Source: Myxococcales bacterium (lineage in GTDB: Bacteria; Myxococcota_A; Bradymonadia; Bradymonadales; Bradymonadaceae). Taken from it: DNA of 39,888 nt. Below the pieces are notes generated by a model. It was not told the DNA's origin and made no database searches. It saw nothing but the letters and a program-made list of their open reading frames with translations. The stretch covers positions 1 to 39,888 of the forward strand of contig SLPW01000101.1 of assembly GCA_007131755.1 (NCBI GenBank), written 5' to 3'. Shown here one piece after another: positions 228-39,052 of the stretch (positions are counted from its first letter, which is position 1; the number at the start of each line of letters is the position of its first letter). The position numbers and the translations under genes are program-made.

Positions 228-303
228 GTGCAGCCGAGTTTTTTTCGGCAGTCGGGAAGACGAGACTTCCCGGTGGAGATCAAACCGCGACAGAGGCATG
301 GCA

Positions 304-20096: not shown

Positions 20097-23000
20097 GTGT
20101 CCACGAACCATACCGAGAAGATCCTGAACTTCATGGCTGATGAATCTGCCGAAAAGTCGAAGTCGCAGCTCGATGAGACGTCATCGGACGTCGAAGAGAC
20201 GGCGAAGAAGAGCGCAGAGGGAGGGAGCGAGAAGAGTCCGCAGTCGGTGAAGGCCGATCTGCGCGCTCTGGAGGCGGTGCTAAAGCGTACGGGCCGCGCT
20301 CTGGGGCGTCCGGTGATCATCGAGGGAGCCCTGTGGTACGGGGTGACGTTGGTGGCAGTTGTGTTGTCGTCGCTGGTGGCGATGGCGTTGATCGCCGAGC
20401 ACGGATACCAGGTAGCGCGGTGGATCCTCACGGTGGGGATCGGCTCGGCGACGCTGGGAGCGGTGGTGGCGCTGGCGACCTATCTGTGGCGAAGACCGGG
20501 GCCGATGGATGTGGCGGCGCGGGTGCAGCGTCATAGCGGGGAGTTTCGAAGCGACCTGGTGGCAGCGCTGGAGTTTGGTCGAAGGCTTCGCGATGAGGGA
20601 GAGGATTCGCTGCGCGACGACGGGGTGAGCCCGTCCATGGCCAGAGCCCATCTGGCGCGGACTCTGGAGAGGGTCTACGACGCAGCGCAGAACCACTCCC
20701 TGGCGCATCTGGTGCCAGCGCGAAACCTGGCGCCGCCGGTACTGGCGATGTCCGGTGGCGTGGCCCTGCTATTGGTGCCCCTGTTGTTGAACCCGGGATG
20801 GACGCTGGGGGTGCTCAGCGGAGAGCGGGTGGGAACTCCCGTGGTCGGTGAGCGGGTGGTGGAGAAGACGATCGTGGGGAGTCTGGAGGGGGTCTTCGAA
20901 TACCCGGCCTATACAGGACGCCAGCGCGAGATCCGACCGCTGGGCACGGGCTATCTGGAGGCCCTTCAGGGCACACAGGTGAATCTGTACGCCACGCTGA
21001 TGCCCGGAGAGTGGGCTTCGGTGCAGATGATGGTGGAGACCGGCGACGACGAAGAGCCGCGGGTGGTGGAGATGAACCTGGGCGATCGCTATCGCGCGTC
21101 GGCCAGTATAACCATCGAGGAGAGCGGTCACTATTGGTTTCGTGCGCGCACCATCGAGGGGCGACCTGTTGAAGATCGACAAAAGCGGCGGATCGTGGCC
21201 GTGGAGGACGATGCTCCCCAGATCGAGATCGTCTCCCACAGCGGAAGAATAGGGGTGCAGCCCGACGATATCATTGAATTCGAGATCGAGGCCCACGACG
21301 AATACGGGCTGGAGTCGATCCGAAGAGCCGTTCATTTTCAGGGGGCGGAGGATGACGCGGAGTATGAGCGAATCGGGCGCAGCGAGTTGAGCAGTGAACC
21401 CAGGAGCGCCCAGCTGACGTCAACCCTCGATCTGGGGCCTCTGGACCTTCGGCCCAAGGATGCGGTGGTGGTGTATTTCGAGGCCCGTGACGTCAATCGG
21501 GTCACCGGGCCTGGCGAGGCGCGAAGTGATTCGGTGATCTTGTACGTAGAGAGTAAGGAGGACAAGCACCTGGAGAATATCGCCGCCCAGCAGCAGGTGA
21601 TGGAGGCGCTGTTGATGCATCTGGGCGATGTCTTGGAGTCGCCGGTGGGCACCCGTCAGTTGGAAGGGGGGTCCTATGAACAGAGGGTGGACGAAGAGTT
21701 GGGTGCTGGCGAGCGCATCGATCGGTATCGACGGGCGCAGTCCATCCATGAAAACCGTCGGCCCATTCTGGAGCAGATGGAGGAGCTGGCCAAAAAGCTC
21801 GAAGAAGATCCCCTGATGGTGTCGAGAAATCTCACCATCTTCGAGGGATTGACCGAGCGGTTATGGGCTCTGCATGACGAGGGGGACGAATTATTCGAAA
21901 GGTTGCAGCCCCAGGCGGATCGCCGCGATCTATCCCTGGGAAGACTGCAGGAGACGGCGGATTTTGTGGCCGACTCCGAGGAGACGCTAGAGCAAGGGGT
22001 GATGGCTCTGGAGGACCTCTTGATGACGCAGAAGATGGAGCTCGTGGAGAAGACGGCCGAAGATATCGAGGAGCTTCGCGAACAACTTCGCGACTTGCTC
22101 GAGCAGTACAGAGATACGGAAGACCCGGAGCTCAAAGAGGCCATCGAGCGCGAAATCCACAGGTTGCGCCAGCGAATGGAAGAGCTGACGGCGCGGATGC
22201 AGATGATGCTTCGGGAGATGCCGCAGGAGCATATCAATCTGGAGGCCTTGGAGGGGATGGAGATGGCGGAGCAGTCCGACGATCTGATGGCGCAACTGGA
22301 CGCTCTGGAGGACCTGTTGGCCGAAGGTGATATCGACGCTGCTCTGGCAGCGCTGGACGAAATGGGAGCTCATCTGGACGCCATGAATCACGAGATGGGC
22401 GATTCCTTCGCCGAGATGCAACCGTCGTCGGTCTCAGAGCTCGATCAAGCGGTCTCGGAGATGATGGATCAGATTCGGCAGCTCCAGGAGATGGAGCAGG
22501 AGATCATTGAGGAGACACGCCAGCTCAGCGACGATCTTCGTCAAGAGCGAAGCGAGCAATTGGAGCGAATGATCGAGCCCCTGACGCAGGAGTTGTTGGA
22601 GGCCATCGACGCCCAGAAAGAGCAGTTGGATCGAATGGAGGAGCGCGATCTCTCCGCCCAAGATCAGGCGGAAGTGGAGCGAGCTCAGAATACGATGGAA
22701 CAGCTCCGGGACATGGTCGAAGAGCGCGATATGGAGCAATCTCTGGAGCGGGCGGTGGAGGCCGAACGCAGGTTTCGCTCGATGCGCTCGACCATGTCCA
22801 TATCCGGGCGCTACGCGCAGGAGGGAACGCAGAGAAGCCGCGATCTGGAGCGCTCCCTTCGCGACGTGGGCCAGATGTCGCAGCGTGGAGAAGAGATCCG
22901 AGAGAGGATCGAAGATTTTATGGAAGCGGCGCAGCACGACCTGAGCTCCAGCGAGGAAGATCGATTCGACGAACTCGCCGATCGCCAGCAGATGGTACGA

Positions 23001-23450
23001 GAGCGAACTGAGGACCTGCGTCAGTCGCTGGAGGAACAGGCCGAAGCGCACCCGGAGCTGGACCGAGCAATGCAGCCTTCGCAAGACGAAGAAGGAGAGC
23101 CGTCGCAGGGCTCGCCGGTAGAGGAGGCGGAGCGGGCGATGGGAGAGGCCGAAGAGTGGCTTCGTGAGCGTCAGGTACAGCGCGCCCTCGACGAGGAGCG
23201 CAGGGCCCTGGAGCAACTGGAAGCCCTCGATCAGGGAATGGGGCAGGCCTTGCAGCAGCGGCGCCAGCAGGAGCGGGAGTCTGCAGAGCAGCGCGGCCAC
23301 AGTGATCGAGAACAAGTGGAGATCCCCGGCGAGGACAGCGGGGAGCTACGTGAGCGCATTCGCGAGGAGATGATGCAGGGGATGCGCGATGGGCGGGATG
23401 CGGAATTCGAAGCCGAAATCGAGCGCTATTTCCGGAGTCTGGTCGAATGA
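20097..23450 (+). CDS. Large membrane-anchored protein with a beta-rich middle domain and a very long acidic coiled-coil C-terminal region (possibly DUF4175-like)
   Basis: 1117-aa ORF. Two TM helices (YGVTLVAVVLSSLVAMALIA, WILTVGIGSATLGAVVALATYLW). A beta-rich region (FEYPAYTGRQREIRP...) is followed by about 600 aa of E/D/R/L/Q-rich heptad-like sequence ending EIERYFRSLVE. The start may be GTG 20097 or ATG 20133. Confidence 0.7.
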   Translation: MSTNHTEKILNFMADESAEKSKSQLDETSSDVEETAKKSAEGGSEKSPQSVKADLRALEAVLKRTGRALGRPVIIEGALWYGVTLVAVVLSSLVAMALIAEHGYQVARWILTVGIGSATLGAVVALATYLWRRPGPMDVAARVQRHSGEFRSDLVAALEFGRRLRDEGEDSLRDDGVSPSMARAHLARTLERVYDAAQNHSLAHLVPARNLAPPVLAMSGGVALLLVPLLLNPGWTLGVLSGERVGTPVVGERVVEKTIVGSLEGVFEYPAYTGRQREIRPLGTGYLEALQGTQVNLYATLMPGEWASVQMMVETGDDEEPRVVEMNLGDRYRASASITIEESGHYWFRARTIEGRPVEDRQKRRIVAVEDDAPQIEIVSHSGRIGVQPDDIIEFEIEAHDEYGLESIRRAVHFQGAEDDAEYERIGRSELSSEPRSAQLTSTLDLGPLDLRPKDAVVVYFEARDVNRVTGPGEARSDSVILYVESKEDKHLENIAAQQQVMEALLMHLGDVLESPVGTRQLEGGSYEQRVDEELGAGERIDRYRRAQSIHENRRPILEQMEELAKKLEEDPLMVSRNLTIFEGLTERLWALHDEGDELFERLQPQADRRDLSLGRLQETADFVADSEETLEQGVMALEDLLMTQKMELVEKTAEDIEELREQLRDLLEQYRDTEDPELKEAIEREIHRLRQRMEELTARMQMMLREMPQEHINLEALEGMEMAEQSDDLMAQLDALEDLLAEGDIDAALAALDEMGAHLDAMNHEMGDSFAEMQPSSVSELDQAVSEMMDQIRQLQEMEQEIIEETRQLSDDLRQERSEQLERMIEPLTQELLEAIDAQKEQLDRMEERDLSAQDQAEVERAQNTMEQLRDMVEERDMEQSLERAVEAERRFRSMRSTMSISGRYAQEGTQRSRDLERSLRDVGQMSQRGEEIRERIEDFMEAAQHDLSSSEEDRFDELADRQQMVRERTEDLRQSLEEQAEAHPELDRAMQPSQDEEGEPSQGSPVEEAERAMGEAEEWLRERQVQRALDEERRALEQLEALDQGMGQALQQRRQQERESAEQRGHSDREQVEIPGEDSGELRERIREEMMQGMRDGRDAEFEAEIERYFRSLVE

Positions 23451-25096
23451 AACGAGGGCATGGAGATCATCGAGGAACGCGGGGGGCCGCAAAGCGAAAG
23501 CGAGCTCAAAGAGGCGCGTTCTGGGCGGCTGTGATGGCTGTTGTGGTCGTCACGATCGGGATGGCCGCCCCGGCACAGGCACAGAACGAGCGCGTCGCCT
23601 TCGAGGCGGCCAACTCCATGCTGGCCTCGTGGCAGATGGGGGAAGCCGAGAAGGCCATCGCCGCGTTCTCCACAATCTCGAATCGAGCGCCCTATCTGAA
23701 CTATCTCGAGGGGCGCTACGCATTTTATAGCGGCGATTACGACGAGGCGTTGACGAAGCTGGACGCAGCGGTAGAGGAAGTAGATCGGCAGGACTGGCAG
23801 CAATTTCGCGATATTGTCGCCAATACCGTGGAGATCACAGACGGTTATGAGCGTCACGTGAGTCCATCGGGAAAATTCGAGATCTGGGTGGAGCCGGGTC
23901 CGGACGAGGCGTTGATTCCCTACGCCATAGAGGCCCTGGAGGAGGCCTACGACGAATTGGGTGAGATTTTGGATTATCGCCCCGACGAGCCGGTGCGCGT
24001 CGAGGTCTATCCCCGGGCGACCATTTTGGCCGACGTGTCGATGCTGACGGAGGAGAATATCCGCACTTCCGGCACCATCGCTCTATGCCAGTACAATCGA
24101 CTCATGATCACCAGCCCCAGAGGAGTGCTGCGGGGATATTCCTGGGTGGATACGCTGATCCACGAATATATTCACCTCATGATCAACCAGCGCAACGTGG
24201 AGACCGTGCCGATCTGGATGCATGAAGGGCTGGCGAAGTATCTGGAGCGAAGGTGGCGAGGGGACAGGGAGTCGACTCTGGATGCGTCGTCGGAGCATCT
24301 TCTCAAGAAGCGATTGGAGGACAATAATCTGGTGGCCTTCGACGATATGCATCCCTCGATGGCGATGCTGCCAAGTCAGGAGGACGCGGCGGTGGCCTTC
24401 GCCCAGGTGTTTACGACGATGGAGTATCTGGAAAAGCAGCTCGGCGACGACGCCTTCGCCAGGCTCCTGGATGCGGTGGACGAGGGATTGGAATCGCGCG
24501 AGGCCTATGCACATGTGCTGGGGACGACCTGGGATGAATTCGAGAACTACAGGTGGCGAAATTATCTACATCGTCGATCGACGCCGGATCTTCCAGACGA
24601 TCCGGACGCAATCTACCAGGAGGAAGTGGTTTTGCAGGACGAGGCGGGAGCTGCTCCAAGTGAGCTCGACCAGGTGGAGAAGCCGGAAGCCCGAAAGCAT
24701 ATGGAGCTGGGCCAGATGTTTCAGGTTCGGGAGAGATGGGGGGCGGCGGCCGTGCAGTACGGAAAAGCTCAGGCACTGATGGGGGACTCGAACCCGGTGC
24801 TCCAGACCCGCAAGGCGAAGAGCCTGACGAAGAGCGGGAATCCGGAAAGAGCGGTGGAGATCCTGCAGACGGTCAAGGATCTGCATCCGGGCCACGTGGC
24901 CACGTGGCGTGAATTGGGGCGGGCTCATCTGATGGCTCACGAATATTCAGAGGCCCGCGAGGCGCTGCGCGAGGCGGCCAGAATCAATCCCTTCGATCCC
25001 GAGATCCACCGGATGCTGGCCCGGGCAGCAGACGAACTCGATTTAAGCGACGAGGCAGAGGTCGCGCGGCAAAGCGTCGATCTGGTGCGGCGATAG
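23447..25096 (+). CDS. Secreted HEXXH metallopeptidase-like (Peptidase_MA_2-type) protein with C-terminal TPR repeats
   Basis: The ATG overlaps the upstream stop (ATGA at 23447-23450). Signal peptide ...IGMAAPAQAQN. Zinc motif LIHEYIHLMINQ plus downstream WMHEGLAKYLE. C-terminal TPR-like helices (GNPERAVEILQTVKDLHPGHVATWRELGRAHLMAHEYSEAREALREAARINPFDPE). Confidence 0.7.
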   Translation: MKRGHGDHRGTRGAAKRKRAQRGAFWAAVMAVVVVTIGMAAPAQAQNERVAFEAANSMLASWQMGEAEKAIAAFSTISNRAPYLNYLEGRYAFYSGDYDEALTKLDAAVEEVDRQDWQQFRDIVANTVEITDGYERHVSPSGKFEIWVEPGPDEALIPYAIEALEEAYDELGEILDYRPDEPVRVEVYPRATILADVSMLTEENIRTSGTIALCQYNRLMITSPRGVLRGYSWVDTLIHEYIHLMINQRNVETVPIWMHEGLAKYLERRWRGDRESTLDASSEHLLKKRLEDNNLVAFDDMHPSMAMLPSQEDAAVAFAQVFTTMEYLEKQLGDDAFARLLDAVDEGLESREAYAHVLGTTWDEFENYRWRNYLHRRSTPDLPDDPDAIYQEEVVLQDEAGAAPSELDQVEKPEARKHMELGQMFQVRERWGAAAVQYGKAQALMGDSNPVLQTRKAKSLTKSGNPERAVEILQTVKDLHPGHVATWRELGRAHLMAHEYSEAREALREAARINPFDPEIHRMLARAADELDLSDEAEVARQSVDLVRR

Positions 25097-25276: not shown

Positions 25277-27955
25277 TCAATCGAAGGCGTAGACGACGTC
25301 CTCGCCGTATTCGTCGATCATCTCATCGACATGGTCGAGGAGTTTCTGGCGCTGTTCCCAGAAGAATTCAAGACGCCGTTGTTCGACGGAGGTGGGTTCG
25401 GGAAAGAGGACAGGGTTGACGACTTCGGGACGGAGCATTCGGATGGCAGTGATGACGGTGCGGTCGAAGCGGCCGATCCCTTCGAGACGCTGGTCCAGGT
25501 AGGCCAATTCGCGGCGTTGGTGATATTGGAAGGCGGCGCTGTTGTCGATGGGGACGAAGCGTCCGTGAGCGAAGTGTGCGTTGACGCCGTAGTAATCCTC
25601 GACACCGCTGTATCGGTCGAAGTTATTCGTCAGAAAATCGAAGACGTGGAGGTTAGAGACCTGTCGGGCCAACTGGCCTTTGGTCCGTCCTTCGATATGG
25701 GGTTCGAGGCGGTTGGCAGCGCTGCGACTCTCGTCGGAGAGGCGCGTGAGAAAGGTCTCGGGCTCGGCATCGAGGTCGACCTGTTCATCGGGATCGAGCC
25801 AGGGACGCCAGGTGTGGACGTATTCGATGGGCCAGGTGGTGTACTCGGGGATCCACTCCTTGAGGGTGCCGTAGAGATAGTCGCGCTGGACCCCGTCGGG
25901 TCCGCGCTCTTGTTTCCAGTGGAGTTCGTGGAAGCGTTCCTCGGCGTAGGAGTGCTGACGGGGGGTGTTGATCCGTCCGTAGAGTTCATCGAAGTCTGCG
26001 CGGCTTATCCGGGCGGGCTCGTTGAAGGGAACGTAGAGGTCGAGGGGAAGGAGTTTGCTCAATTTGTAGGCGGCGATCTCGGCTCGCCAGCCCTCTTCCC
26101 ACTCCTCGCGGGCGACCTTGTAGGCGTAGCGATTGTCGCCGGCGGAGGTGAATCGAAGGGTAATGGAGCGGCCACCGCCGAGGGCTCGTAGATCGTCGAC
26201 GGAGTTCCGTGGCGTAATGGTGCGCAGTTGCTGGCGAAAGTGGGGGTCTTCGGAGACGGCCTTTTCGAAGATCGCCTGCAGCCGGGAGGGATCGTCAGCC
26301 TGGGCTGCATGATGGGAAGCCAGGTGGCGGGCCGCTTCGAAGGCGCCGCGTTCCAGGGCTGTCTCTGCCAGTTTTTCACCGTCGGCGCGGGCGGCGTCGA
26401 CGGCGATGCGGGTCGCTTCGTTGATGGCCTCTGTTCGTTGGGCCTCGATCTCGTCGTCGACAATCCAGCGCGGTTCATCGATGACGGCCGGGGCGGAGAC
26501 GGCCTGTTCGGAGTCCGTGTCGTCGGCGACGACCGGGGAGGGGTCGGCGAAGTAGGCGTAGGCGATGGCGGCACCAGTGACACCGGCCACCGTCGCACTA
26601 GCGATGCCCGTGGTCACCAGGGCGATCGTCCAGGGAAGAGTGTTGCTGGCCGCCCGGATGGTGGGGATGGGATCGGGGTCGGGATCGGCTTCTTCGGTAA
26701 TCTCGACCTTCTTGATCTGCGCTACATCGGCCGCTGCGGGAGTGGCATCGCCAGGATCGGATCGCTCGTCCAGCACTTGTGAATGGGCCAACAATAGGCT
26801 GGTGACGCTCTGGGCGATGACGTCGCGGACGCGTTCGAAGATGGGGTGTTCTTCGATGGGCACCCAGGGACCGTCGTCCTCGGCGATGGCGTCGGCGACG
26901 ACCCAGATTCCGCGGCGAAATAGAGTGATGAGAGAGTCGAATTCGATATCGCCGTAGGTCTTGGCGCCGATGCGAAGGCGATAGGTCGTAGCTGTGGCCT
27001 CGGCGTCCTCGAGGGAGAGCGATTCCGCAGTGGAGCCGGAGGATTCGGGGGCAGAGATGGTCAGCGGAAGCTCGACGCCCGGCTCGGGTGGTTCGGGGGC
27101 CTGTGGCGATGGAGGAGGCGGCGCAGGAGGCGCGGTGGCGTCAGGGAAGGGATCGTCTGTTTTCGGTTGGGGAGCGTCGGGGAGTTCCTTCGGTGGTGAA
27201 GGGGCCGCCGATGCTTCGGGAGATGTATCGACGTCCGGCTCCGGGGGGGCAGGTTTGTTGGGCGAGTTGATAACGTCGTCGTCTCGGTCGTCTAGCCTGG
27301 CGCCGGGCAGTCGCTCAAATTGCAGGGACGCCTCGTCGACGATGAGGAGTTCCTCCGTGGCGGCATCGACGGCCTCGTCGATCAGGTCGTCACCGAGCCA
27401 GTCGTCGGTGTCGATCTGCATGTCCTGCGAGGACTGGTCCGTGGCAGATGAGGAATCGTCCAAGCTCGTCGTCAGCGTTTGACCGGTCGTTGCCGCCTGG
27501 GCGGCAAAGGTGCCCTTTCTGCGCCCCCTCAGTTCTTGAAGGAGTGCGCTCGCCAGGGGACGATCGGCGCCGGGACGGTCGGCTTCGGGAAGGCGCGGTG
27601 CTCCGGCCTGATTGCCGCTGGGCTCGAAGAGCCCAAGGGGACCTTTTTGGGGTCCGTCGCCGGGTTCGAAGGCGCTTCGTGTGGGACGCGCGCGGGGCGT
27701 CGACGGTGATGGTGGGGCGGGGGTGGGGCGTCCAAAGATGTCACTGGTGTTCAGGGAACGCCAGCCCGGGCGTCGGTCCGGCGTCGGGTTTGCCGAGACC
27801 GCTGCTCGGGGCTCGGCCTGCGTAGCGGTCGAACGCTCCAGAGCCATGACGGCGTCACAGCGCGGGCAGGCGAGCTCCGCTCGCGCCGGCGCTGCCGGGC
27901 CGAGGCGGACTCGAAAGCGGGCCGCACATCCCGGGCATTGGAGTTGGTCGGACAT
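25277..27955 (-). CDS. Single-pass membrane protein: N-terminal zinc ribbon, Pro-rich linker, GYF_2-like domain, TM helix, C-terminal Fam20-like atypical kinase-like domain
   Basis: Track ORF 25277..28057. The ATG at 27955 (MSDQLQCPGCAARFRV...LACPRCDAVM) is preferred. GYF-like YRLRIGAKTYGDIEFDSLITLFRRGIWVVADAIAEDDGPWVPIEEHPIF. TM helix LPWTIALVTTGIASATVAGVTGAAIAYAYF. C-terminal motifs YAYKVAREEWEEGWRAEIAAYKLSKLL and VFDFLTNNFDRYSG. Confidence 0.7.
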   Translation of the reverse strand: MSDQLQCPGCAARFRVRLGPAAPARAELACPRCDAVMALERSTATQAEPRAAVSANPTPDRRPGWRSLNTSDIFGRPTPAPPSPSTPRARPTRSAFEPGDGPQKGPLGLFEPSGNQAGAPRLPEADRPGADRPLASALLQELRGRRKGTFAAQAATTGQTLTTSLDDSSSATDQSSQDMQIDTDDWLGDDLIDEAVDAATEELLIVDEASLQFERLPGARLDDRDDDVINSPNKPAPPEPDVDTSPEASAAPSPPKELPDAPQPKTDDPFPDATAPPAPPPPSPQAPEPPEPGVELPLTISAPESSGSTAESLSLEDAEATATTYRLRIGAKTYGDIEFDSLITLFRRGIWVVADAIAEDDGPWVPIEEHPIFERVRDVIAQSVTSLLLAHSQVLDERSDPGDATPAAADVAQIKKVEITEEADPDPDPIPTIRAASNTLPWTIALVTTGIASATVAGVTGAAIAYAYFADPSPVVADDTDSEQAVSAPAVIDEPRWIVDDEIEAQRTEAINEATRIAVDAARADGEKLAETALERGAFEAARHLASHHAAQADDPSRLQAIFEKAVSEDPHFRQQLRTITPRNSVDDLRALGGGRSITLRFTSAGDNRYAYKVAREEWEEGWRAEIAAYKLSKLLPLDLYVPFNEPARISRADFDELYGRINTPRQHSYAEERFHELHWKQERGPDGVQRDYLYGTLKEWIPEYTTWPIEYVHTWRPWLDPDEQVDLDAEPETFLTRLSDESRSAANRLEPHIEGRTKGQLARQVSNLHVFDFLTNNFDRYSGVEDYYGVNAHFAHGRFVPIDNSAAFQYHQRRELAYLDQRLEGIGRFDRTVITAIRMLRPEVVNPVLFPEPTSVEQRRLEFFWEQRQKLLDHVDEMIDEYGEDVVYAFD

Positions 27956-28090
27956 GATCGATGTCTGGCAAAGCAGATCGGTGACGGAAAACCTCGGCTT
28001 CAGGCTAGCAGTTCTGGGGGAGAACGGAAATAAATTCGGGGTAGGCGTTCGGTACACGCGGGAGGGAGGAGCAACGGACCCACTCCCTTT

Positions 28091-28140: not shown

Positions 28141-28265
28141 ATGATGTTTCGGCTCACTGATGGAATCTTATCACACCTGGATGGTGGGTGGGTGTTGTCT
28201 CGAGGTGCGGGGAGAAGGTATGCAATGGGAAACCAATGGAGTGACTACGCAAAGGAGGAATGAAG

Positions 28266-28979
28266 ATGACGGAGATGAAAAAGGGAGAGAGGACTATTGT
28301 GGTGACCGGGGCGAAGGGGGCGTTGGGTGGAGAGGTCATCAAGCGCTTTGTCCAATACGGTGACGAGGTGATCGGCTGGGATATTGAGGCGCCGGGGCCG
28401 GGAGCGCTGGTCGAGGACGATCGGCGCAGAAATCTGCGCTGGCTCAAAGTTGATCTGTGTGATTCGGCGGCCGTCGAGGGGGCGACGGCGACGGTGGAGC
28501 AGGAGGTGGGCGGCATTGACGCATTCATCCACTGCGCCGGAGGATTTCGCTGGTCTCATATCGAAAAGATCGACACAGCGGATATCGATTTTCTGGTCAA
28601 CGTCAATCTGCGCTCGAGCCTGTACGTGGCTCGGTCGGTGATGGGAAGGATGAAGGAGCGCGGACAGGGGAGGTTGATCTTCATGAGCTCTCGCTCCACG
28701 ACGGGTCCCGCCGCTGGCGAGGGAGCCTATGTGGCGACGAAAGCCGGGCTCAACGCGCTGACTCGCTCGCTTGCTGACGAGGTCAAGGAGTCGGAGATCA
28801 CGGTCAACGCCCTGCAGCCCTCTGTCATCGACACCCCCGATAATCGGGAGGCCATGCCGGATGCGGACTTCTCGACCTGGGTGCCCCGAGCGGAGTTGGT
28901 GGATCTGATGGAATACCTACTCAGCGACAAAGCTCGGTCGATCAACGGATCTTTGATTACCGTGTCCGGACGCACATGA
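28266..28979 (+). CDS. Short-chain dehydrogenase/reductase (classical SDR)
   Basis: TGxxGxxG motif as VVTGAKGALGGEV. Catalytic YxxxK as YVATKAGLNAL. The AAGGAGG at 28252-28258 favours the ATG at 28266 over the track start at 28260. Confidence 0.85.
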   Translation: MTEMKKGERTIVVTGAKGALGGEVIKRFVQYGDEVIGWDIEAPGPGALVEDDRRRNLRWLKVDLCDSAAVEGATATVEQEVGGIDAFIHCAGGFRWSHIEKIDTADIDFLVNVNLRSSLYVARSVMGRMKERGQGRLIFMSSRSTTGPAAGEGAYVATKAGLNALTRSLADEVKESEITVNALQPSVIDTPDNREAMPDADFSTWVPRAELVDLMEYLLSDKARSINGSLITVSGRT

Positions 28980-29084
28980 GTCTTCGGGTCCGGTTGACTC
29001 GGCCCGGTGTGGAGACTACCAGTCGGGTCGGCGGTGTGTACGCCATTGAAATTCACCCCTGTTTAGATGAGGAGAGAGGCGACG

Positions 29085-29717
29085 ATGGAAGACAAGATTA
29101 CGGTCATCGACCACCCGCTGATCCAACACAAATTGACGCTGATGCGGCGCAAGGAGACCAGTACGGGGAAGTTTCGCACCTTGATGAGAGAAGTGGCGTT
29201 GTTGCTGGGCTATGAGGTGACCCGCGATCTTCCGTTGGAGGAGAGGGTCATCGAGACGCCGCTGACAGAGATGAAGGCGCCTCATCTGGTGGGCAAGAAG
29301 CTGGTCATCGTGCCCATCTTGCGGGCCGGCATCGGGCTGGGAGACAGTCTGTTGCAGTTGATGCCCTCGGCACGGGTGGGTCATATCGGGCTGTACCGCG
29401 ATCCGAAGACTCTGGAGGCGGTGGAGTATTATCTGAAGGTGCCGGAGAATATGCACGATCGGGACGTCATCGTCGTCGATCCGATGCTGGCCACCGGAAA
29501 TTCGGCCGCCGAAGCGGTGAAGAGAATCAAGGAATTCGAGCCGCGTTCGATCAAATTTTTGTGTCTGTTGGCGGCACCGGAGGGAGTGGAACACTTCGCC
29601 GAAGTTCACGGGGACGTGCCGATGTATACGGCGGCGCTGGACGAAAAGCTCAACGAAAAAGGCTATATCATTCCGGGACTGGGCGACGCCGGTGACCGCC
29701 TGTACGGAACGAAATAA
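29085..29717 (+). CDS. upp: Uracil phosphoribosyltransferase
   Basis: [31 protein letters not shown]... is the typical Upp N-terminus. PRPP-binding loop [15 protein letters not shown]-terminal [26 protein letters not shown] Shine-Dalgarno. 210 aa. Confidence 0.93.
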
Positions 29718-31017
29718 GCAGGAGCACTAAGAGTGCGAAGGCGGCGGGGACGGAGGCTGGTAGATTTGTGCCGGCGACATTGTTGCATCCACCGGCCACT
29801 CCCTGAGAAGGGGTGACGAGGCTCGCCGCGGTGTCGTCGTCCCCGTCCCCGTTGCCATCATCGTCGTCGTCGTCTTCGTCACGTGGTGCTTGCCCGGTTG
29901 TGACACAGCGGTCGTCGTCACAGCCGGCATTGCAGGACTCGGTACTTGTGATTTCGCCATCGACACACTCCACGCGTATGCGCTGGTTGAAGCAGTACCA
30001 GCCGTCGTCATCAGCCTCGTCGATACAAAATCCTGATTCGCTTTCCTCAGGGGGGCTCGAGCAGGCGGTATCGGAACATCCGTAGGCGCAGGTGTCGACG
30101 GCGGTGGATTCGTCGCCGCTGCACTGCACTCGTTCGGTCTCGTCGAAGCAATGCCATCCGTCGTCGTTGTCGGCACAGAAGAGATCGTATTCGGAGGGTT
30201 CCTCCCAGGGGCCGCCGCACTCCCCACCGGCGCGCTCGATATGAATGTCTTCGCCGTAATAAAAGGGCATCATCTCTTCGTAGGTCCAACCCCGGTCGGC
30301 GAGGCAGGATTGGCCGTTTTGTGATGCACAGCCGCGGTTTTGAGGGTTGTCATGACAACTGGCGGGGGTCCATCCGAGAGAGGTCATCTCGATATTGCAC
30401 TCCGATTGTCCAAGGTTGTAGGTCACGAAGTGCTCTGTGCTCGTCGGGTCGGAGCCCGTGCCCTGGCAGGCGCTCTCGACGGGATCGCCGCCGGGATTGG
30501 CGGGGTGTGCGCCGGCGACGTAAAAGGGAGCGACGACCTCACCGTTCCAACTCAAATATTGGCCGCGGGTGGCCCGTGCGGCTTCGAAGTGGCGCTCGCT
30601 GGCGTCCGTATAGGTGCAGTCATACACCTGATCGGCCTGGCTGTTGACCACGGAGTCGGCGCCGGCGACGAAGAGCTTGTAGTAGATATAGCCGCGGGCC
30701 TGCACGGCCTGAGCTTTCAGGGCCTCCATGGGGGCGTTGCCATTCTCGCAGGCCACCACGTTGGGGATATAGTCCTCCTCGATGTCGATGTCGCCATACC
30801 CCTCGACGTGGATGGTGCAGGGCGCTTCGGCGGGAAGCATGGGCTGCATGGTTTGATCGCGATCCTCGTCGACGACGGGGCCCCCGATATTGGAGCGAGG
30901 AGTCGGCTCGTCGTACTCACCGCAGGCGGCGATGGAGATGAGCAAGAATGCCGTCGCACACAGAGCGATCGTACGGTGAAGAGGGTGGGCGGGCTCTTCT
31001 GGTGGTTCGGCGTTCAT
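29668..31017 (-). CDS. SpoIID/LytB-domain lipoprotein with duplicated Cys-rich modules and a MYXO-CTERM-like C-terminal sorting tail
   Basis: Track ORF 29668..31314. The ATG at 31017 follows GGAG. Lipobox LLISIAAC. SpoIID-like [33 protein letters not shown]. Two about 36-aa repeats ([35 protein letters not shown] and [35 protein letters not shown]). A poly-D run is followed by the tail [37 protein letters not shown]. Confidence 0.7.
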
Positions 31018-31259
31018 GGTCACTCCGGAGGAAGGGGGAATCCGCGGGCACCAAAGTATTCCATGAACGAGTGATGGGGGCAAACGGGGGCCAATATGAT
31101 TGGTGTGAGATGTCGATAGGGGGATTGTAAGTTGTTGAAAAGGCGGCAGTTTTGGTTGATCTGTCGTTTCTTCGCCGTGTAGAACGAAGAGTGTCTGCCA
31201 GCAGGAAACAGGTGGATACAGGAAAGTTGAGATCACGATTCTTCGGCGGCGAGGCAGTA

Positions 31260-32207
31260 ATGAATATTCGACGACTTCTCTGGTGTAGTGCGCTGGCGTT
31301 GTGGTTTGCTTCATGTGGTTTTGATGGTGAAGAGGCGCCCAGGGAGGATGACGATTTGAAGTCGATCTGCGCTGTCATGGATTGCGACGCCGATAGCGGC
31401 TGGTATTGGGGAGGTGACGGCGAACGATGGGAGTTCAAGCCTCGAATGGACGATAGGGGTGAGGAGCAATCGCCGCAGGAAGAGGATTCACCGCAGGAAG
31501 AGGATTCACCGCAGGAAGAGGATTCACCGCAGGAAGAGGATTCACCGCAGGAAGAGGATTCACCGCAGGAAGAGGATTCACCGCAGGAAGAGGATTCGCC
31601 GCAAGACGAGGACGAAGCAACCAATGAGGATGGGGAAGATGACGGCGACGCCACGGAAGACGAAGGGGAAGGGAATCTCCAGCCGGGAGAAGAAGAGTCG
31701 GATGAAGTAGATGACGATCAGGGTCCTTTCGTTCCCGATCTTCAATGTGCAGACGACCCGTCGATCTGCCGTTTCTGCGGACCCGTGGGGGAGTTGGTGA
31801 CGGAATGTCCGCAAGGAGATCCGAGCTTCGAATGCCAGGTCTTCGAGCTGGTCAACGAGATTCGTGTCGACGAGGGCCTCAATGCCCTGGACTTCGACGG
31901 TACACTTGCTGAGGCAGCCATGATCCATGCCATGGATCTCAGCCTGTGCAATTACTTCGCCCACGACTCTTTGGACGGGACGGGGTTCTTTGAGCGCTGT
32001 TATGAGACGGGTTATGACGCCACCTGCACCGGGGAAAATATCGCCGGCGGCCAGCAATCGCCTCAGGCCGTGGTGAACGCCTGGATGGCCTCGCCGGGTC
32101 ACCGGCAAAATATCCTATATCCCCACCATACGGAGGTGGGGATCGGGTTTTTCGTGGGTGACGGGTATTATACCCGGTATTGGGTGCAGAATTTCGGGAG
32201 GCGGTGA
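31260..32207 (+). CDS. Lipoprotein with acidic (EEDSPQ)n repeat linker and C-terminal CAP/SCP (YkwD-like) domain
   Basis: Track ORF 31152..32207. The ATG at 31260 gives MNIRRLLWCSALALWFASCG (lipobox). CAP-domain blocks FELVNEIRVDEGLNAL, GENIAGGQQSPQAVVNAWMASPGHRQNIL and YWVQNFG. Confidence 0.8.
   Translation: MNIRRLLWCSALALWFASCGFDGEEAPREDDDLKSICAVMDCDADSGWYWGGDGERWEFKPRMDDRGEEQSPQEEDSPQEEDSPQEEDSPQEEDSPQEEDSPQEEDSPQEEDSPQDEDEATNEDGEDDGDATEDEGEGNLQPGEEESDEVDDDQGPFVPDLQCADDPSICRFCGPVGELVTECPQGDPSFECQVFELVNEIRVDEGLNALDFDGTLAEAAMIHAMDLSLCNYFAHDSLDGTGFFERCYETGYDATCTGENIAGGQQSPQAVVNAWMASPGHRQNILYPHHTEVGIGFFVGDGYYTRYWVQNFGRR
31473..31616 (+). repeat. In-frame 18-nt tandem repeat CCGCAGGAAGAGGATTCA, 7 near-perfect copies plus 1 degenerate copy
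   Basis: Units start at 31473, 31491, 31509, 31527, 31545 and 31563 (all identical). The unit at 31581 has 1 mismatch and the one at 31599 is degenerate. The array encodes PQEEDS repeats inside the CAP lipoprotein. Confidence 0.95.
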
Positions 32208-32208
32208 C

Positions 32209-34353
32209 TTATGGAAGGAAGAGTTCGCCCTCGATGGCAGCGTCCAGGACCAGGAATCCCTGTCGGATATCCATGGGGCGGGTCATACGCACGGTGAGCG
32301 CCATATCGGCCAACTCCGGAGCGTAGGGCTCGAGGGCATCCAACTCGGGGATGGGAAGCGAGAAGCTCAGTCCCTCGCCGAGTGCACCTTCCAATTCGGG
32401 CCAAAGAAGTTCGTCGATGAGGCTCATCAGGTCATTGGCGCTCATAAACGGTGTGTCCTCGGAGCTTTCGATCAACCAGAGATCGATGTGGGGGTCGTCG
32501 CTGATCTCGATGGCGATATCGTCGCCGGCGAAGACCAGATTTGCGCCGACGGAGATATGAGCGCCGAAGAGATCTTGTTGGTCCATCCAGTCCAGATTGA
32601 GTTCCAATTGGCCAAGACTCAAGATGAGGTCGTAGGGCTCGTTGCCCACGGGGGGAGTGACGACGGGGGGAAGTTTGCCGTTGGCGTGCCCGGCGTCGAT
32701 AAGACCTGCCAGTTCCTCGACCTGTTCAGTGATGTCGAGATCGAGAAGTCCCGCGCTCCATAGACTGTGAAGAATGGAATTGAGGAGGCTCAGATTGAGA
32801 GCAAGTTGGACGCGACTTTCGGCGAACATGGGGTTGGTGACGGCCTCGGCATGACTGATGGGAACGCCGGGATTATCGGGGAAGACAGGAGCGGCGTCGA
32901 CGTTCAACTCGGCGCTGATATACCCCTCGAGACCTTCGCCTCGGATGGGGAGGAGTTGACCGATCTGGCCATCAAAATCGATGGTCAGAGGGTCGGCGAA
33001 GTCGAGATCGAGGTCGAATTGCTGGTCTGCCAGGATCCCGTCGAGGGATTCGAAGAGGTCGAGGATCATGTCGGGGAGGCTGTCGACGAAGGCATCATCG
33101 ATGGCGTCGAGGACGAGCTCTTCGAGTTGGTCGCGCAGCATGCTGTCGGCCAACTCGAAGATGGCGTTGGCCTCGTCGCTATCGAAGTTCGGTTCTGCGC
33201 TCTCGACGGCCAGGACGAGGTCGGAGAGGTGGACGTGTATGTCCTCGTCGGGGCCCGTTTTTCCAACCTCCAGGTCGGCGAGGATGGAGACCATGGCCGA
33301 GAGGTCGCCGGCCAGATCGATGGTCTCGTCGGTCAGGGCGAGGAAGCCCTCGGTTTCGGCGCGCAGATCGGGGATCTGAGCGTAGAGTTCGAGACCTGTG
33401 TCGGTGGCGTTGAGTTCGATGCGCGAGTCGTTGATGGAGACGTCGGGCACGTTGAGGGTGAAGGTGTCGGATTCGACGACGGGGTTGGGGATTTCGTCGT
33501 TGAGATCGGCGTAATCCAGGATCAATTCCAGGATGTCCGTCAGATCCTCGGTGAGGATCTGTGATTCGGAGATCACCGTATAGGGCTGTCCGTCATCGAG
33601 GAAATTCTGACCGAGGCGAAGCAAAATGGCATCGTCGATGGATACGTGGATAGAGTCCTCGTCGCCACCGGGCTCGGCGTAGGTGGGAGCCCACAAGACG
33701 CTCGCAGAGGCGGTTCCGTCTTGAACGTTGACGCCGTCGAAGGCTCGAACGGTGATGTGGTTGACGCCGAAGCGGGGCTCGATCTGTGTGGCGAAGCGCC
33801 CGTCGGAGTCGACCTCCACGGTCTGGCCTGAGACGAGGACGAAGTCGTCGACCAGGTTCGGATCGGCGATGCCCTCGACGGGGATGGTCTCGTCGATATC
33901 GCCGCGGAAGAACTCGCCGGGAAGGGGCCGCTCCAGGATGACCGTGCCCTGGCCACTGGCGGAGGTGATCTCTCGATCGCCACAGACGTCGGTGACGGCA
34001 CCTGTGTCGCTGTCCAGCACGCATGCCTGGAAGGTGATGCGTCCTTCGGCGACGACGGTCCACTGCTCTTCGTCTTGCTCGACGTTATCGTCTGGGGTGA
34101 CCGTCCACTCCACGTCGACCCCCTCGATCTCCTCGCCATCCTGATCGTAGATCGTGGCCTCGGGGGTGACCGTCGTTCCGATGACGTAGGTGCTGCGGAT
34201 GGGAGTGATGTCGACGAGGACGAAATTGGCCGAGGGAGAGGCCGACGAGCCATCTCCGTCGCTCTCACTGCTGCTACAGGCGGATAGCGCCGGGAGCACC
34301 AGAAGGGTCGAGGCCACCAGGGCGATGGTTGTACGAAGCATTTGCTTATTCAT
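32209..34353 (-). CDS. Large acidic lipoprotein, paralog of the upstream 926-aa lipoprotein (function unknown)
   Basis: 714 aa. Lipobox LVLPALSAC. Ig-like beta domain(s). The C-terminal roughly 400 aa are alignable by eye with the neighbour (LLNSILHSLWSAGLL vs LLNQALHSLWRAGLF; SFSLPIPEL vs ALPALPIPSF). The start is 3 nt after the upstream stop. Confidence 0.7.
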   Translation of the reverse strand: MNKQMLRTTIALVASTLLVLPALSACSSSESDGDGSSASPSANFVLVDITPIRSTYVIGTTVTPEATIYDQDGEEIEGVDVEWTVTPDDNVEQDEEQWTVVAEGRITFQACVLDSDTGAVTDVCGDREITSASGQGTVILERPLPGEFFRGDIDETIPVEGIADPNLVDDFVLVSGQTVEVDSDGRFATQIEPRFGVNHITVRAFDGVNVQDGTASASVLWAPTYAEPGGDEDSIHVSIDDAILLRLGQNFLDDGQPYTVISESQILTEDLTDILELILDYADLNDEIPNPVVESDTFTLNVPDVSINDSRIELNATDTGLELYAQIPDLRAETEGFLALTDETIDLAGDLSAMVSILADLEVGKTGPDEDIHVHLSDLVLAVESAEPNFDSDEANAIFELADSMLRDQLEELVLDAIDDAFVDSLPDMILDLFESLDGILADQQFDLDLDFADPLTIDFDGQIGQLLPIRGEGLEGYISAELNVDAAPVFPDNPGVPISHAEAVTNPMFAESRVQLALNLSLLNSILHSLWSAGLLDLDITEQVEELAGLIDAGHANGKLPPVVTPPVGNEPYDLILSLGQLELNLDWMDQQDLFGAHISVGANLVFAGDDIAIEISDDPHIDLWLIESSEDTPFMSANDLMSLIDELLWPELEGALGEGLSFSLPIPELDALEPYAPELADMALTVRMTRPMDIRQGFLVLDAAIEGELFLP

Positions 34354-34356
34354 GGC

Positions 34357-37137
34357 TCACTGGACTCCGAAAGAACCGTAGAGTTCGAGATGACGCCGGT
34401 GCTGATCGAAGGAGGTGTTGTAGATCCCGATATCGGCGCTCTGGGGAAGATCGAATTCGGTCATATCGTCCGGGACTTCAAAGGACGGGATGGGCAAGGC
34501 GGGCAGAGCGGAGTTGAGGGATTGGTCGATGATGTCCTGGAGCAGGTCCTGGATGAAGTCCTCAAGGATATCTCGAGTTTCGGCGTTGAGCGAGATGCCC
34601 TGCGGAGAGAGGTAGAACTCGTCGATGGAGATGGCATCGAAGCTCAGTTCTTCTTCGTCGAGATTGATGCCCGTAGAGGCGATGGCACCTGCGGTGAGAG
34701 ACACGGGCTCATCGAAGATGCCGGGGTAGACCAATTCGAGGTGTGCCGCTCCGAGCATCAGGCGGGCGCCGTCGTCGGGATCGTCGCCGAAGTCGAGCAT
34801 CGGGGGGAGATCGACGGCCAATTCCACGGAGACGCCGTCGGGGAGGTCATCGCCCAGGGCCCCGCCAACGTTGGCGTGGAAAAGGCCTGCTCGCCAAAGG
34901 GAGTGAAGGGCCTGATTGAGGAGGACGACGTGTGCCCCGACGGCAGCGCTATGCTGGGGATTGAAGGCATTCGGCACCAGGAGGTTGGCGAGATAGGGGC
35001 CCGGCGGATGGGGCACGCCGAGACTGTTGGCGCCGGGGGATTCGCTGTCGGGCACATGAGGTGGACCGGGATAGATTCGGGGACCGAGGCCGAATTGGGC
35101 CTCGTCGGGATCGATCTCGATGGAGGAGAATCGAAAGTCGAAGTTCAGCCTCATTTCGTCGTCGCTGTCCAGCCGGGGAACGTCGAAGCTTGTGCCCAGG
35201 GACTCGACGTCCAGGCTCTCGAAGATCCCGCTGAAGAGGTCGTCGAAGTTGTCGGTGATGGCGTCTTCGAAGGTGTCTTCGATCACTCCCTGTAGGGTGC
35301 CCTGAAAGAAGGTATCGATGGCGCTGTACATGAGATCGGAGAAGGCGTTGCTCCCGGAGAGGCTGATATTTCCACTGTTGACATTGTCCACCTGGCGCAG
35401 GCTGAAGTTGGGTCGGCCGGAGCTGTCGAGCTCAAGGTCAGCAGTGACGTCGATGTCGAGAAAACCGATTTCAGCATCAGGGCTGAACGTAGCGCCCAGG
35501 CAGAGCGAAAAAGTATTCGTTTCGATGCGCAGATCGATGACGACATCGTAGAAACTGGCAGACAAGGTCAGGCCGCCGTCGACGAGGTTCATTGAAGTTA
35601 CGTGGGGGGTGCCGCTAAGTAGAATAACCTCTTGTATTTCCAACTCCCCGCCGCAGGTTCCGACATCGTATTTTTGTCCGTCAGCCAGTTCGTCGTTCAG
35701 GAGATCTTCGAGCCCCTGACTGTTGAGGGCGGTCATAATCAGGTCGTTGAGGCTGTTGAATTCTCCCTCGGTGAATTGCCCGTCGTCGACGGCGGGCTGA
35801 AAAAGACTCAGGGCGATGGCGTCGTCCAAAAAGGCGTCCTCCTCGGCCCAGGTGTCGGAGACGAGGAAGGCGCAGGTGCGCACGTTTTCCTCGCCATAAT
35901 AGTCGTGGGCGACGATATCGATGAAGTTGATGCCGTATTCGGTGTCGATTTCGGTATCGAAGTTCATCGCGCCCTTGGTGCCCGGATCGTCGAGGAGGAT
36001 TTCCTGGCCATTGACGAAGACGGCGTCGGTACCGTGGGCATCGGCGACGGTTCCCTCGAAGACGATGGGTTGACCGGGGGAGTGATCGATCATCTGCCCA
36101 TCGGCGGGGTAAATGCAGTTGATATCGGGGCCAGTGTCATTGACGATGATTACGATCTCTTCATAGAGGGGCTCGTCGTTGAAGGTGGGCTCGGTGACCT
36201 CGATGGTGATGGTATAGATGCCCTCGCTGTGGAATCGGAAGCGGCCTTCGCCGAAGGATTCGCCCGTGGGAAGAGCGTCGTATTCGATCTCGGGGCGGGC
36301 GATGCGATTGCCGTAGCGGTCTACGACGTGAGCGTCGACGGAGATGACCTGGCCGATGCCGTAGACTTCCTGGTTGGGCACGGGGGAGACGGACAATTCG
36401 GCCGGCAGATGAGGCAAGACCTCCAGGGGGGCTCCGAAGCGGTCGTCGGCGCCGTCGACGAGGCAACTGAAGGTGAAGATCCCGGCGATGGTGACGGTGG
36501 CGCTGAGGTTTTGATTGTCGACGACGATGCCGGAGGAGCTGGTATCGGCGATGAGCTCGACGTCGGCATCGGGGATGAAATTTCCGAATTCGTCGAAGAC
36601 TTCGCAACTGGCCTCGACGGCGTCGCCGGCCACGATCTGGTGATCGCTCAGAGAAATCGCCGTGGTGTGCGCCGGCCCCGGCTTGACGGTCAGGTCTACG
36701 GGATCGGTGTCCGTAAGCCCCAGTTGGTGAGATTGACAGGCCAATTTGGCGTCGCCGGCGCGGGTGGCGTAGAGTTCACCGCCGCTGGTCTGGAAGCCAT
36801 CGTCGGGAAATTGGAGAATCCGCGTCGAAGGGGCTTCATCTTCATCGAATTCGACGGGATTGCCTGCGCCGTCGACGAATTCACAACTGGCGTCGATGGG
36901 TTCGCCGGCGATGACCGTCGTGTCTTCGACGACGGTATTGATGGCGATGGCCTTGTCCGGGACCGGCGGTTCATCGAAATCGACGCCGTTGGCACTGCTG
37001 GTTCCGGTGTCGTCGGAGCCGCAGCCCACCAGCGGCAGCGAGAGGGCGCCCAGAAGGAGGGCGACAACGACAAAACCCGTGCAGCGGCGGGGAGTTCGTC
37101 GCAGCGAGGGTTTCGTGAGAAGATGCAGGAGATCCAT
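34357..37137 (-). CDS. Large acidic lipoprotein with three Ig-like repeats and a shared C-terminal domain of unknown function
   Basis: 926 aa. Signal/lipobox LSLPLVGC. Three about 90-aa repeats each carry a conserved ...AGD/EP.(D/E)ASCE... pattern. The C-terminal half is paralogous to 32209..34353. Confidence 0.75.
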   Translation of the reverse strand: MDLLHLLTKPSLRRTPRRCTGFVVVALLLGALSLPLVGCGSDDTGTSSANGVDFDEPPVPDKAIAINTVVEDTTVIAGEPIDASCEFVDGAGNPVEFDEDEAPSTRILQFPDDGFQTSGGELYATRAGDAKLACQSHQLGLTDTDPVDLTVKPGPAHTTAISLSDHQIVAGDAVEASCEVFDEFGNFIPDADVELIADTSSSGIVVDNQNLSATVTIAGIFTFSCLVDGADDRFGAPLEVLPHLPAELSVSPVPNQEVYGIGQVISVDAHVVDRYGNRIARPEIEYDALPTGESFGEGRFRFHSEGIYTITIEVTEPTFNDEPLYEEIVIIVNDTGPDINCIYPADGQMIDHSPGQPIVFEGTVADAHGTDAVFVNGQEILLDDPGTKGAMNFDTEIDTEYGINFIDIVAHDYYGEENVRTCAFLVSDTWAEEDAFLDDAIALSLFQPAVDDGQFTEGEFNSLNDLIMTALNSQGLEDLLNDELADGQKYDVGTCGGELEIQEVILLSGTPHVTSMNLVDGGLTLSASFYDVVIDLRIETNTFSLCLGATFSPDAEIGFLDIDVTADLELDSSGRPNFSLRQVDNVNSGNISLSGSNAFSDLMYSAIDTFFQGTLQGVIEDTFEDAITDNFDDLFSGIFESLDVESLGTSFDVPRLDSDDEMRLNFDFRFSSIEIDPDEAQFGLGPRIYPGPPHVPDSESPGANSLGVPHPPGPYLANLLVPNAFNPQHSAAVGAHVVLLNQALHSLWRAGLFHANVGGALGDDLPDGVSVELAVDLPPMLDFGDDPDDGARLMLGAAHLELVYPGIFDEPVSLTAGAIASTGINLDEEELSFDAISIDEFYLSPQGISLNAETRDILEDFIQDLLQDIIDQSLNSALPALPIPSFEVPDDMTEFDLPQSADIGIYNTSFDQHRRHLELYGSFGVQ

Positions 37138-37238
37138 GATGAAACTCTCGGCCAGAAAAAGGCAACATCACACAGCTATGTAAAAACGACGCGTCTGACC
37201 GATAAGAGTAGCGAGTGGGGGGGGAATATGCAAATTCA

Positions 37239-39032: not shown

Positions 39033-39052
39033 TGGATAACGGTGCGTGGGGT

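Follow-up and report, generated by a model that had tools for sequence, protein, structure and literature searches.

The 39,888-nucleotide stretch at positions 1 to 39,888 of contig SLPW01000101.1 of a Myxococcales bacterium (GenBank assembly GCA_007131755.1, family Bradymonadaceae), called the window here, carries on its reverse strand a gene for an 892-residue protein. From the N-terminus to the C-terminus the protein combines a zinc ribbon (ZnR), a long low-complexity linker, a GYF-like domain, a single transmembrane segment and a domain of protein-kinase-like fold whose nearest relatives are the Fam20 proteins (Table 1). This arrangement had been put forward beforehand from the DNA letters alone (the original prediction).

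The open reading frame (ORF) of the gene extends further than the chosen product, from 25277 to 28057 on the (-) strand, and start sites were chosen by comparison with the N-termini of homologues. The six full-length homologues align from the Met at 27955 with the shared pattern M-[SA]-[DE]-x-[IL]-x-C, and because all homologues with the full architecture begin at this ATG, the 892-residue product is taken to be correct. One database protein, P0001, is 99.7% identical to the window protein with three residues different, and the same architecture was found in six database proteins at 43-52% identity. Judged by these homologues and by the large family of its C-terminal domain, the gene is genuine and not a chance ORF.

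Table 1. The gene and the features of its product, with positions in the window. A1 is the alignment of the window protein with its full-length homologues.
Feature	Residues	Position	Strand	Basis or remark
Whole gene		25277..27955	(-)	892 codons + stop; ATG at 27955; from ORF list
Cys4 zinc ribbon	1-40	27836..27955	(-)	C7, C10, C30, C33; CxxC-x19-CxxC
Low-complexity linker	41-321 (281 aa)	26993..27835	(-)	Composition; presumed disordered
Linker motif 1 (PGWRSLNTSDIFGRPTPAPP)	63-82	27710..27769	(-)	W65, F74, G75, R76, P79, P82 invariant in A1
Linker motif 2 (PRLPEADR...RPLASALLQELRGRR)	120-150	27506..27598	(-)	Kept in P0001-P0004, missing from P0005 and P0006
Linker motif 3, acidic (TDDWLGDDLIDEAVDAATEELLIVD...FERLPGA)	183-220	27296..27409	(-)	Six full-length homologues
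GYF-like alpha/beta domain	322-370	26846..26992	(-)	Predicted structure and Foldseek
Long helix after GYF-like domain	371-396	26768..26845	(-)	Helix 56-81 of the AlphaFold2 model; conserved, 27 homologues
Single transmembrane segment	440-470	26546..26638	(-)	Hydropathy
Acidic/helical region, predicted extracytoplasmic	471-575	26231..26545	(-)	Composition, model
Fam20-like protein-kinase-like domain	576-892	25280..26230	(-)	Profile, AlphaFold2, Foldseek, conservation

The Fam20-like C-terminal domain and its family

With the whole protein as a single query, Pfam, NCBIfam and PDB returned only sub-threshold ZnR and Fam20C matches plus low-complexity noise. The Pfam Fam20C model (Pfam: PF06702) scored 12.5-14.4 bits against the window protein (E=0.03-0.12). 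Since the single sequence stayed below the threshold (Fam20C E=0.12), the C-terminal domain was aligned from 16 family members, and this alignment (A2) was used for a profile and for an AlphaFold2 (AF2) model. In an hmmsearch of all PDB sequences, the A2 profile matched human Fam20C (E=2e-9), zebrafish Fam20C (DrFam20C, E=2e-8), Fam20A (E=5e-6), C. elegans Fam20 (E=3.6e-4, nearly full length) and Fam20B (E=0.03), and nothing significant was found outside the Fam20 chains.

The alignment to Fam20C is in register in both lobes and also covers the C-terminal helical part. It pairs LGGGRSITLRF, YAYKV, RAEIAAYKL, FDFLTNNFDRYS and IDNSAAF of the window protein with KSGGTQLKLIM, ALFKPM, NAEIAAFHL, FDFLMGNMDRHH and LDNGRGF of Fam20C, respectively. 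The motif strings that had been quoted beforehand for this domain were all located, namely YAYKVAREEW at residues 610-619, GWRAEIAAYKLSKLL at 622-636 and VFDFLTNNFDRYSG at 771-784. The Fam20C blocks that had been given alongside them are likewise real, as the Fam20C and Fam20A chains in PDB contain ...HNAEIAAFHLDRILDF... and FDFL[MI]GNMDRHH.

The AF2 model of the domain has a predicted local distance difference test score (pLDDT) of 90.4 and a predicted TM-score (pTM) of 0.89. Its top Foldseek matches in PDB are zebrafish Fam20C structures (5yh2_D, 5yh0_A), with DrFam20C1 at E=1.8e-8 and a probability of 1.0. Far behind Fam20C follow other protein-kinase-like proteins, AmiN, HipA (E ~1e-3), YihE and APH. 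On the evidence of the profile and of the modelled structure, the C-terminal ~320 residues form a protein-kinase-like fold whose nearest kin are the Fam20 kinases of the eukaryotic secretory pathway, in agreement with the original prediction. As closest family, HipA-like, CotH-like and actin-fragmin-kinase-like proteins were also considered and rejected, since they gave only weak Foldseek or Pfam matches far behind Fam20.

In Pfam scans of two sets of 16 and 54 members, Fam20C was matched below the threshold in 15/16 and 30/54 members, with best E-values of 4.2e-4 and 2e-3, respectively. No competing kinase family recurs in these scans, and HipA_C and CotH have zero matches among the members scanned. 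As no member reaches the Pfam gathering score, the family is, by sequence, distinct from PF06702 and its sister and not one of its members.

Conservation was counted in an hmmalign alignment of 160 representatives, clustered at 50% identity. The key residues of the kinase-like domain are G593-G595, R601, K613, E626, D773, N778, D780, R781, D804 and N805. D773, N778, D780 and R781 are each kept in 160/160 representatives, K613 and N805 in 159/159, D804 in 156/159 and E626 in 155/159; an R or K is found at position 601 in 152/159. The counterparts in Fam20C are the K of TQLKLIM for R601, LFKPM for K613, NAEIAAF for E626, GNMDRHH for D780 and LDNGRGF for D804. K613 and D780, the Lys of YAYKV and the Asp of NNFDR that had been nominated as catalytic, are in register with the Fam20C positions in this sequence alignment. 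From motif spacing, we take the K of TQLKLIM to be Lys271 of Fam20C and the D of LDNGRGF to be Asp478. Lys271 is a phosphate-binding Lys and Asp478 the DFG-equivalent metal-binding Asp of Fam20C (PMC5413348). The Fam20C-like set of the family comprises the Gly-rich loop, R or K where Fam20C has K271, the Lys of beta3, the Glu of alphaC, the D-x-x-x-x-N-x-D-R of the catalytic loop and the D-N that corresponds to DFG. Across the aligned representatives, the ATP, metal and catalytic positions of Fam20C are invariant or nearly so.

The likeness to Fam20C, Fam20B and Fam20A extends over the GG loop, the F/Y-K-P/V beta3 Lys, the AE[IV]AA[FY] of alphaC, the FDFLxxNxDR loop and the DN[GS]xxF metal site. 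Fam20 domains work outside the cytoplasm, and such a location is predicted for the window family. In contrast to Fam20, the window family is bacterial and has no Golgi type-II signal anchor. In place of the anchor there is the long ZnR-linker-GYF-like region or, in shorter members, a signal-like or lipobox-like N-terminus. Furthermore, the family has its own insertions (residues ~655-760), a TPR-like N-terminal cap and a C-x4-C pattern after alphaC, and the identity to Fam20C is ~13% over the Foldseek structural alignment. CotH of the Bacillus spore coat and the toxin HipA are bacterial atypical protein-kinase-like enzymes with a remote link to Fam20C, but their site of action is the cytoplasm or mother cell, and the window family is plainly nearer to Fam20 than to either of them.

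A word-index search for homologues with the full-length protein was swamped by linker words and gave 6 proteins, and a query with the C-terminal domain added 12 more. The exhaustive profile search with this domain found 1570 clusters (50% identity) at E<=1e-3, of which 330 at E<=1e-30. Related loci in species-representative genomes lie in Bradymonadales (Lujinxingia, Persicimonas and uncultured lineages), in other Myxococcota and in Polyangia. The closest relatives of the window, at 58-60% identity, are metagenome-assembled genomes of Bradymonadales, and named members carry the annotation 'hypothetical protein' or 'TPR protein'.

CotH is the bacterial protein usually cited as Fam20C-like, and according to a survey of the Legionella kinome the FAM20 cluster is specific to eukaryotes or metazoans (PMC9758233). 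The original prediction had called a bacterial Fam20 homologue on the periplasmic side unusual; however, a 2026 phylogenomic preprint already names FAM20B, in passing, among five eukaryotic proteins with Myxococcota as sister group in gene trees. In our literature search there was no description of the family, of its predicted periplasmic location or of its fusion to a module of the type found in the gliding protein GltJ. Fold and cytoplasmic module are each familiar; what is new is their pairing, the predicted compartment of the outer domain and the lineage in which it occurs.

Membrane orientation and the N-terminal module

The transmembrane segment is the sole strong hydropathy peak of the window protein (1.56 over 19 residues). 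It has R434 on its N-terminal side and the acidic stretch DPSPVVADDTD on its C-terminal side, as had been described. All homologues have a segment at the equivalent place, where the hydropathy rises up to 3.4. Between this segment and the kinase-like domain, helices at residues 541-569 (model residues 2-30) have a pLDDT >90 and pack on the kinase-like domain, and TPR_19 was matched in the region equivalent to residues 471-575 in 17/54 homologues.

Architectures were judged on the best 150 of the 1570 clusters together with the earlier matches, among which long and short forms occur. In the long forms, an N-terminal CxxC...CxxC was found in 55/75 and one transmembrane-like segment in 72/75, at a median of 123 residues ahead of the C-terminal domain. 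In 47/54 full-length short forms, a signal-like hydrophobic N-terminal segment directly precedes the domain, and 30 of those 47 have a lipobox-like motif with its Cys at positions 14-43. Such signal-like and lipobox-like N-termini point to export of the domain in these shorter proteins, whereas the long forms carry it behind a single transmembrane segment that follows a zinc-binding and presumably cytoplasmic N-terminus. Moreover, a C-x4-C pair just past helix alphaC is conserved in ~148/159 members (~93%), which is suggestive of a disulfide and would fit an oxidising compartment. In P0005 and P0006, as in the window protein, this pair is missing. From the long and short forms together we infer that the window protein is very probably oriented N-in/C-out with a periplasmic kinase-like domain, and the short forms likewise speak for the outward-facing domain of the original prediction.

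The zinc ribbon that had been noted at the N-terminus is present, with the motif pair C7-P-G-C10 ... C30-P-R-C33. In the single sequence it was matched by Pfam Zn_ribbon_4 (E=4e-4) and by TIGR02098 MJ0042_CXXC (E=3e-3), both sub-threshold. Zn_ribbon_4 was also matched in 26/54 long homologues with a best E of 4.7e-6, and all four Cys are invariant in A1.

The linker is rich in P (16.7%), A (13.2%), D (10.3%) and S (9.6%), the composition that had been described, but at 281 residues it is slightly shorter than the ~330 residues given for it. Apart from its three conserved motifs, the linker is hard to align among homologues and differs in length from one to another. The pattern W-x5-9-[ILVM]F was found within 70 residues past the zinc ribbon in 24/58 long forms, compared with 0.5 expected from shuffles, and within motif 3 the residues W186, A199, D207, R215 and L216 are invariant in 6/6 full-length homologues. 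By analogy with GltJ, motif 1 might be a candidate site for binding of a partner or of the ZnR.

The segment YRLRIGAKTYGD...PWVPIEEHPIF, also quoted beforehand, was located at residues 325-373, and the GYF-like segment is conserved in ~28 long forms. The AF2 model of residues 316-398 has a pLDDT of 86. Its top Foldseek matches in PDB (probability 0.87-0.93, TM-score ~0.5) are Tic56 from two species (7vcf_Q, 8z9y_E and probably 7xzi_F) and the GYF domain of GltJ (7z3c; probability 0.91, TM-score 0.52/0.51, 23% identity), followed by the GYF domains of GIGYF1/2, Smy2 and CD2BP2. Tic56 and GltJ both fit an ad hoc GYF_2-type consensus. With hhalign against five GYF sequences, P was 7e-4 at a probability of 26%, with the G, the helix, a Gly and W-x-P in register. 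The model makes it likely that the segment has a GYF-type fold.

Two departures from this module were observed within the family. P0007 (634 residues; 54% identity in the C-terminal domain) keeps the ZnR and the linker and lacks most of the GYF-like domain, since 'TYRIR', the first GYF-like strand, runs directly into the transmembrane helix. In a sub-clade of long forms (P0082, P0088, P0090, P0091, P0093, P0096 and others), another conserved cytoplasmic motif, S-V-E-A-G-L-K-R-L-E-S-E-K-L-S-F-L ... I-S-K-F-D-P past the zinc ribbon, replaces the GYF-like region, and therefore the outer Fam20-like domain is paired with more than one inner module.

A protein for comparison is GltJ (AgmX) of the Agl-Glt gliding machinery of Myxococcus xanthus, with a ZnR at residues 1-42 (C5, C8, C28 and C31; Attia et al. 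2024, PMC11135422). Beyond the ZnR, GltJ has a 95-residue linker, a GYF domain at 138-222, one transmembrane helix and a periplasmic TonB-C domain; MglA-GTP is bound by its linker, a proline-rich stretch of AglZ is the ligand of its GYF domain, and MglB is recruited by the ZnR once this has been freed (PMC11135422). ZnR-GYF modules are widespread and attached to diverse extracellular regions, outside Myxococcales they show no correlation with MglAB or AglZ, and the authors proposed that ZnR-GYF proteins signal between compartments (PMC11135422).

GltJ and the window protein, both from the phylum Myxococcota, share the Cys4 ZnR with identical CxxC-x19-CxxC spacing, followed by a linker; the probable GYF-type fold, the one transmembrane helix and the predicted periplasmic domain of the window protein then come in the order of their GltJ counterparts. 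They differ in the outer part, which is Fam20-like in the window protein and TonB-C in GltJ, in the linker, which is three times longer in the window protein (281 vs 95 residues), and in the GYF-like domain, which in the window protein is devoid of the GP motif and escapes detection by Pfam GYF_2. Sequence similarity to GltJ was detected neither in a PDB sequence search with the ZnR, which did not retrieve GltJ (7Z0K), nor in one with the profile of the GYF segment. The original prediction had likened the ZnR and GYF arrangement to that of GltJ and had taken it to bind MglA; the module order does match, but it is the linker of GltJ, and not the ZnR or the GYF domain, that binds MglA-GTP (PMC11135422).

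Genomic surroundings

The target gene is solitary. Downstream it is convergent with a Peptidase_MA/tetratricopeptide repeat (TPR) gene (23447-25096, +), its upstream neighbour is a divergent SDR gene (28260-28979, +), and a promoter and terminator scan at the target gene gave no signal over background. The upstream SDR-UPRTase-SpoIID block (window 28260-32207) is syntenic in two related genomes (L001 3812-7760; L038 4137-6833), with a CAP-domain gene added to it in the window and in L001. The target orthologues in these two genomes are only ~46% identical, and each of the syntenic loci has a different downstream neighbour, which is Peptidase_MA in one case and VKOR or an ABC component that binds phosphonate in the others. 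In more distant homologues, the neighbours are unrelated to those in the window. The SDR-UPRTase-SpoIID block has no obvious functional link to the target gene.

Elsewhere in the window, a gene for a DUF4175 protein (1117 residues) and that for the Peptidase_MA_2/TPR protein (together 20097-25096, +) overlap by 4 nucleotides and run towards the target gene as a probable operon. Two large tandem ORFs (714 and 926 residues), each with a weak Glucodextran_B match, were found within 32209-39032 (-), adjoined by a Hanks-type Ser/Thr kinase (597 residues, 37239-39032). The ORFs at 16484-17758 (+), 175-834 (+) and 39017-39799 (+), of 424, 219 and 260 residues, did not match any Pfam family at E<=1e-4, and the putative ORF at 39017-39799 is overlapped by an antisense ORF of similar length. 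The GC skew, (G-C)/(G+C), is strongly positive (+0.11 to +0.29) in all 2-kb bins of 1-39888, whatever the local coding strand.

Proposed function and competing explanations

We propose that the window protein is a bitopic inner-membrane protein, N-in/C-out, in which the membrane segment joins a periplasmic phosphotransferase to a switch for protein interactions in the cytoplasm, and we put the probability of this reading at roughly 60%. The kinase-like domain would be catalytically competent and would phosphorylate a target in the envelope, with a nucleotide or some other compound as donor. The target would be Ser/Thr of a protein, which is what Fam20C modifies, or a glycan, the kind of substrate used by Fam20B. 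The ZnR-linker-GYF-like module would be, by analogy with GltJ, a cytoplasmic protein-binding switch which positions the outer enzyme, controls its activity or reports its state to the cell interior, and its partners need not be MglA.

Several results speak against this proposal in its different parts. For the outer domain, the Pfam Fam20C gathering score of 26.8 bits is unreached by the window protein, which scores at most 14.4 bits, and the TM-scores to Fam20C are modest (0.42-0.47; top match 0.47/0.42). For the orientation, the window protein lacks the conserved Cys pair, with S633 and L638 instead (26078-26044 region), and the positive-inside bias is weak, with 3 vs 1 K/R in the 30-residue flanks of the transmembrane segment. 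For the switch, the Foldseek E-values of the GYF-like model are 0.16-0.6 and none is E<=1e-3, a profile of the GYF segment retrieved only chance designed TIM barrels among PDB sequences, and G-D-I stands in place of the canonical GP(F/Y) of GYF domains. For the GYF_2-like segment of the original prediction, Foldseek points to the fold (probability ~0.9, E ~0.2) and hhalign gives a probability of 26%, while Pfam GYF_2 has no match in the window protein or in the 54 long homologues. Gene surroundings change from one homologue to another, and neither a conserved operon partner nor a candidate substrate stands out beside the target gene or its homologues. Finally, the periplasm is generally considered to be without ATP, which leaves the donor of a kinase that depends on a nucleotide in this compartment unexplained.

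Because of this difficulty with the phosphate donor, another explanation of the outer domain stays alive, that of a pseudokinase-type receptor for a ligand or protein, like Fam20A, which would signal outside-in to the ZnR-GYF module with no phosphotransfer, its pocket being kept for structure or allostery. ATP is not generally expected in the periplasm, the role between compartments that the GltJ authors proposed for ZnR-GYF proteins would suit such a receptor, and Fam20A is non-catalytic though ATP-binding, with the same fold (PMC5413348). However, a pseudokinase has usually given up one or more of its catalytic residues, whereas the Lys, the Glu, the catalytic Asp, the Asn and the metal-binding Asp of the family are invariant or >97% conserved in the 160 representatives, a signature of selection on catalysis. 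The conservation of all catalytic residues in such diverged sequences argues for catalysis and against a pseudokinase, and we regard the receptor explanation as unlikely.

A further explanation, which is compatible with either an enzyme or a receptor on the outside and which we consider quite improbable, sees the protein as a GltJ paralogue coupled to polarity or motility, whose cytoplasmic module would bind MglA together with MglB and an AglZ-like partner and so link the gliding or polarity system with a periplasmic enzyme. GltJ has its modules in this order and the Cys residues of its ZnR at this spacing, its GYF domain ranks among the best structural matches, short conserved motifs are found in the linker, the part with which GltJ binds MglA-GTP, and the Bradymonadales, the host lineage, are surface-motile predators. 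Nevertheless, there is no detectable sequence similarity to GltJ, the window protein is without TonB-C, through which GltJ is connected with the motor, and ZnR-GYF proteins outside Myxococcales are uncorrelated with MglAB or AglZ (PMC11135422). Moreover, genes for mglA, mglB, agl or glt were found neither in the 40-kb window nor beside the homologues, and the gene context lends no support to the polarity or motility coupling of the original prediction.

It is very improbable that the topology is reversed or the hydrophobic segment non-spanning and the domain an atypical kinase of the HipA or CotH kind in the cytoplasm: the moderate hydropathy (1.56) and weak charge bias of the window protein and HipA among the lower Foldseek matches (E ~1e-3) would allow it, but homologues have stronger transmembrane segments (up to 3.4) at the same place, short forms have signal-like or lipobox-like N-termini, HipA_C and CotH of Pfam were never matched, and a 440-residue Cys4 zinc-binding N-terminus would have to be exported.

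The periplasmic phosphotransferase on a cytoplasmic switch is the reading we prefer. Its boldest extension, a true nucleotide-dependent periplasmic kinase under cytoplasmic ZnR-GYF control combined with a Myxococcota lineage as the source of the eukaryotic Fam20 kinases, is speculative and, we think, doubtful.

The family described here is a large uncharacterised bacterial sister of Fam20 with an intact active site and a predicted extracytoplasmic location, set against a Fam20 literature that treats these kinases as eukaryote- or metazoan-specific. It raises the question whether envelope proteins or glycans are phosphorylated in the periplasm of Myxococcota, and from which donor. It also raises the question of what the ZnR-linker-GYF switch, so far studied only in GltJ, does when it is joined to an enzyme in place of TonB-C, and whether the eukaryotic Fam20 kinases were inherited from Myxococcota. 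The window protein is an experimentally tractable bacterial model of the Fam20 fold.

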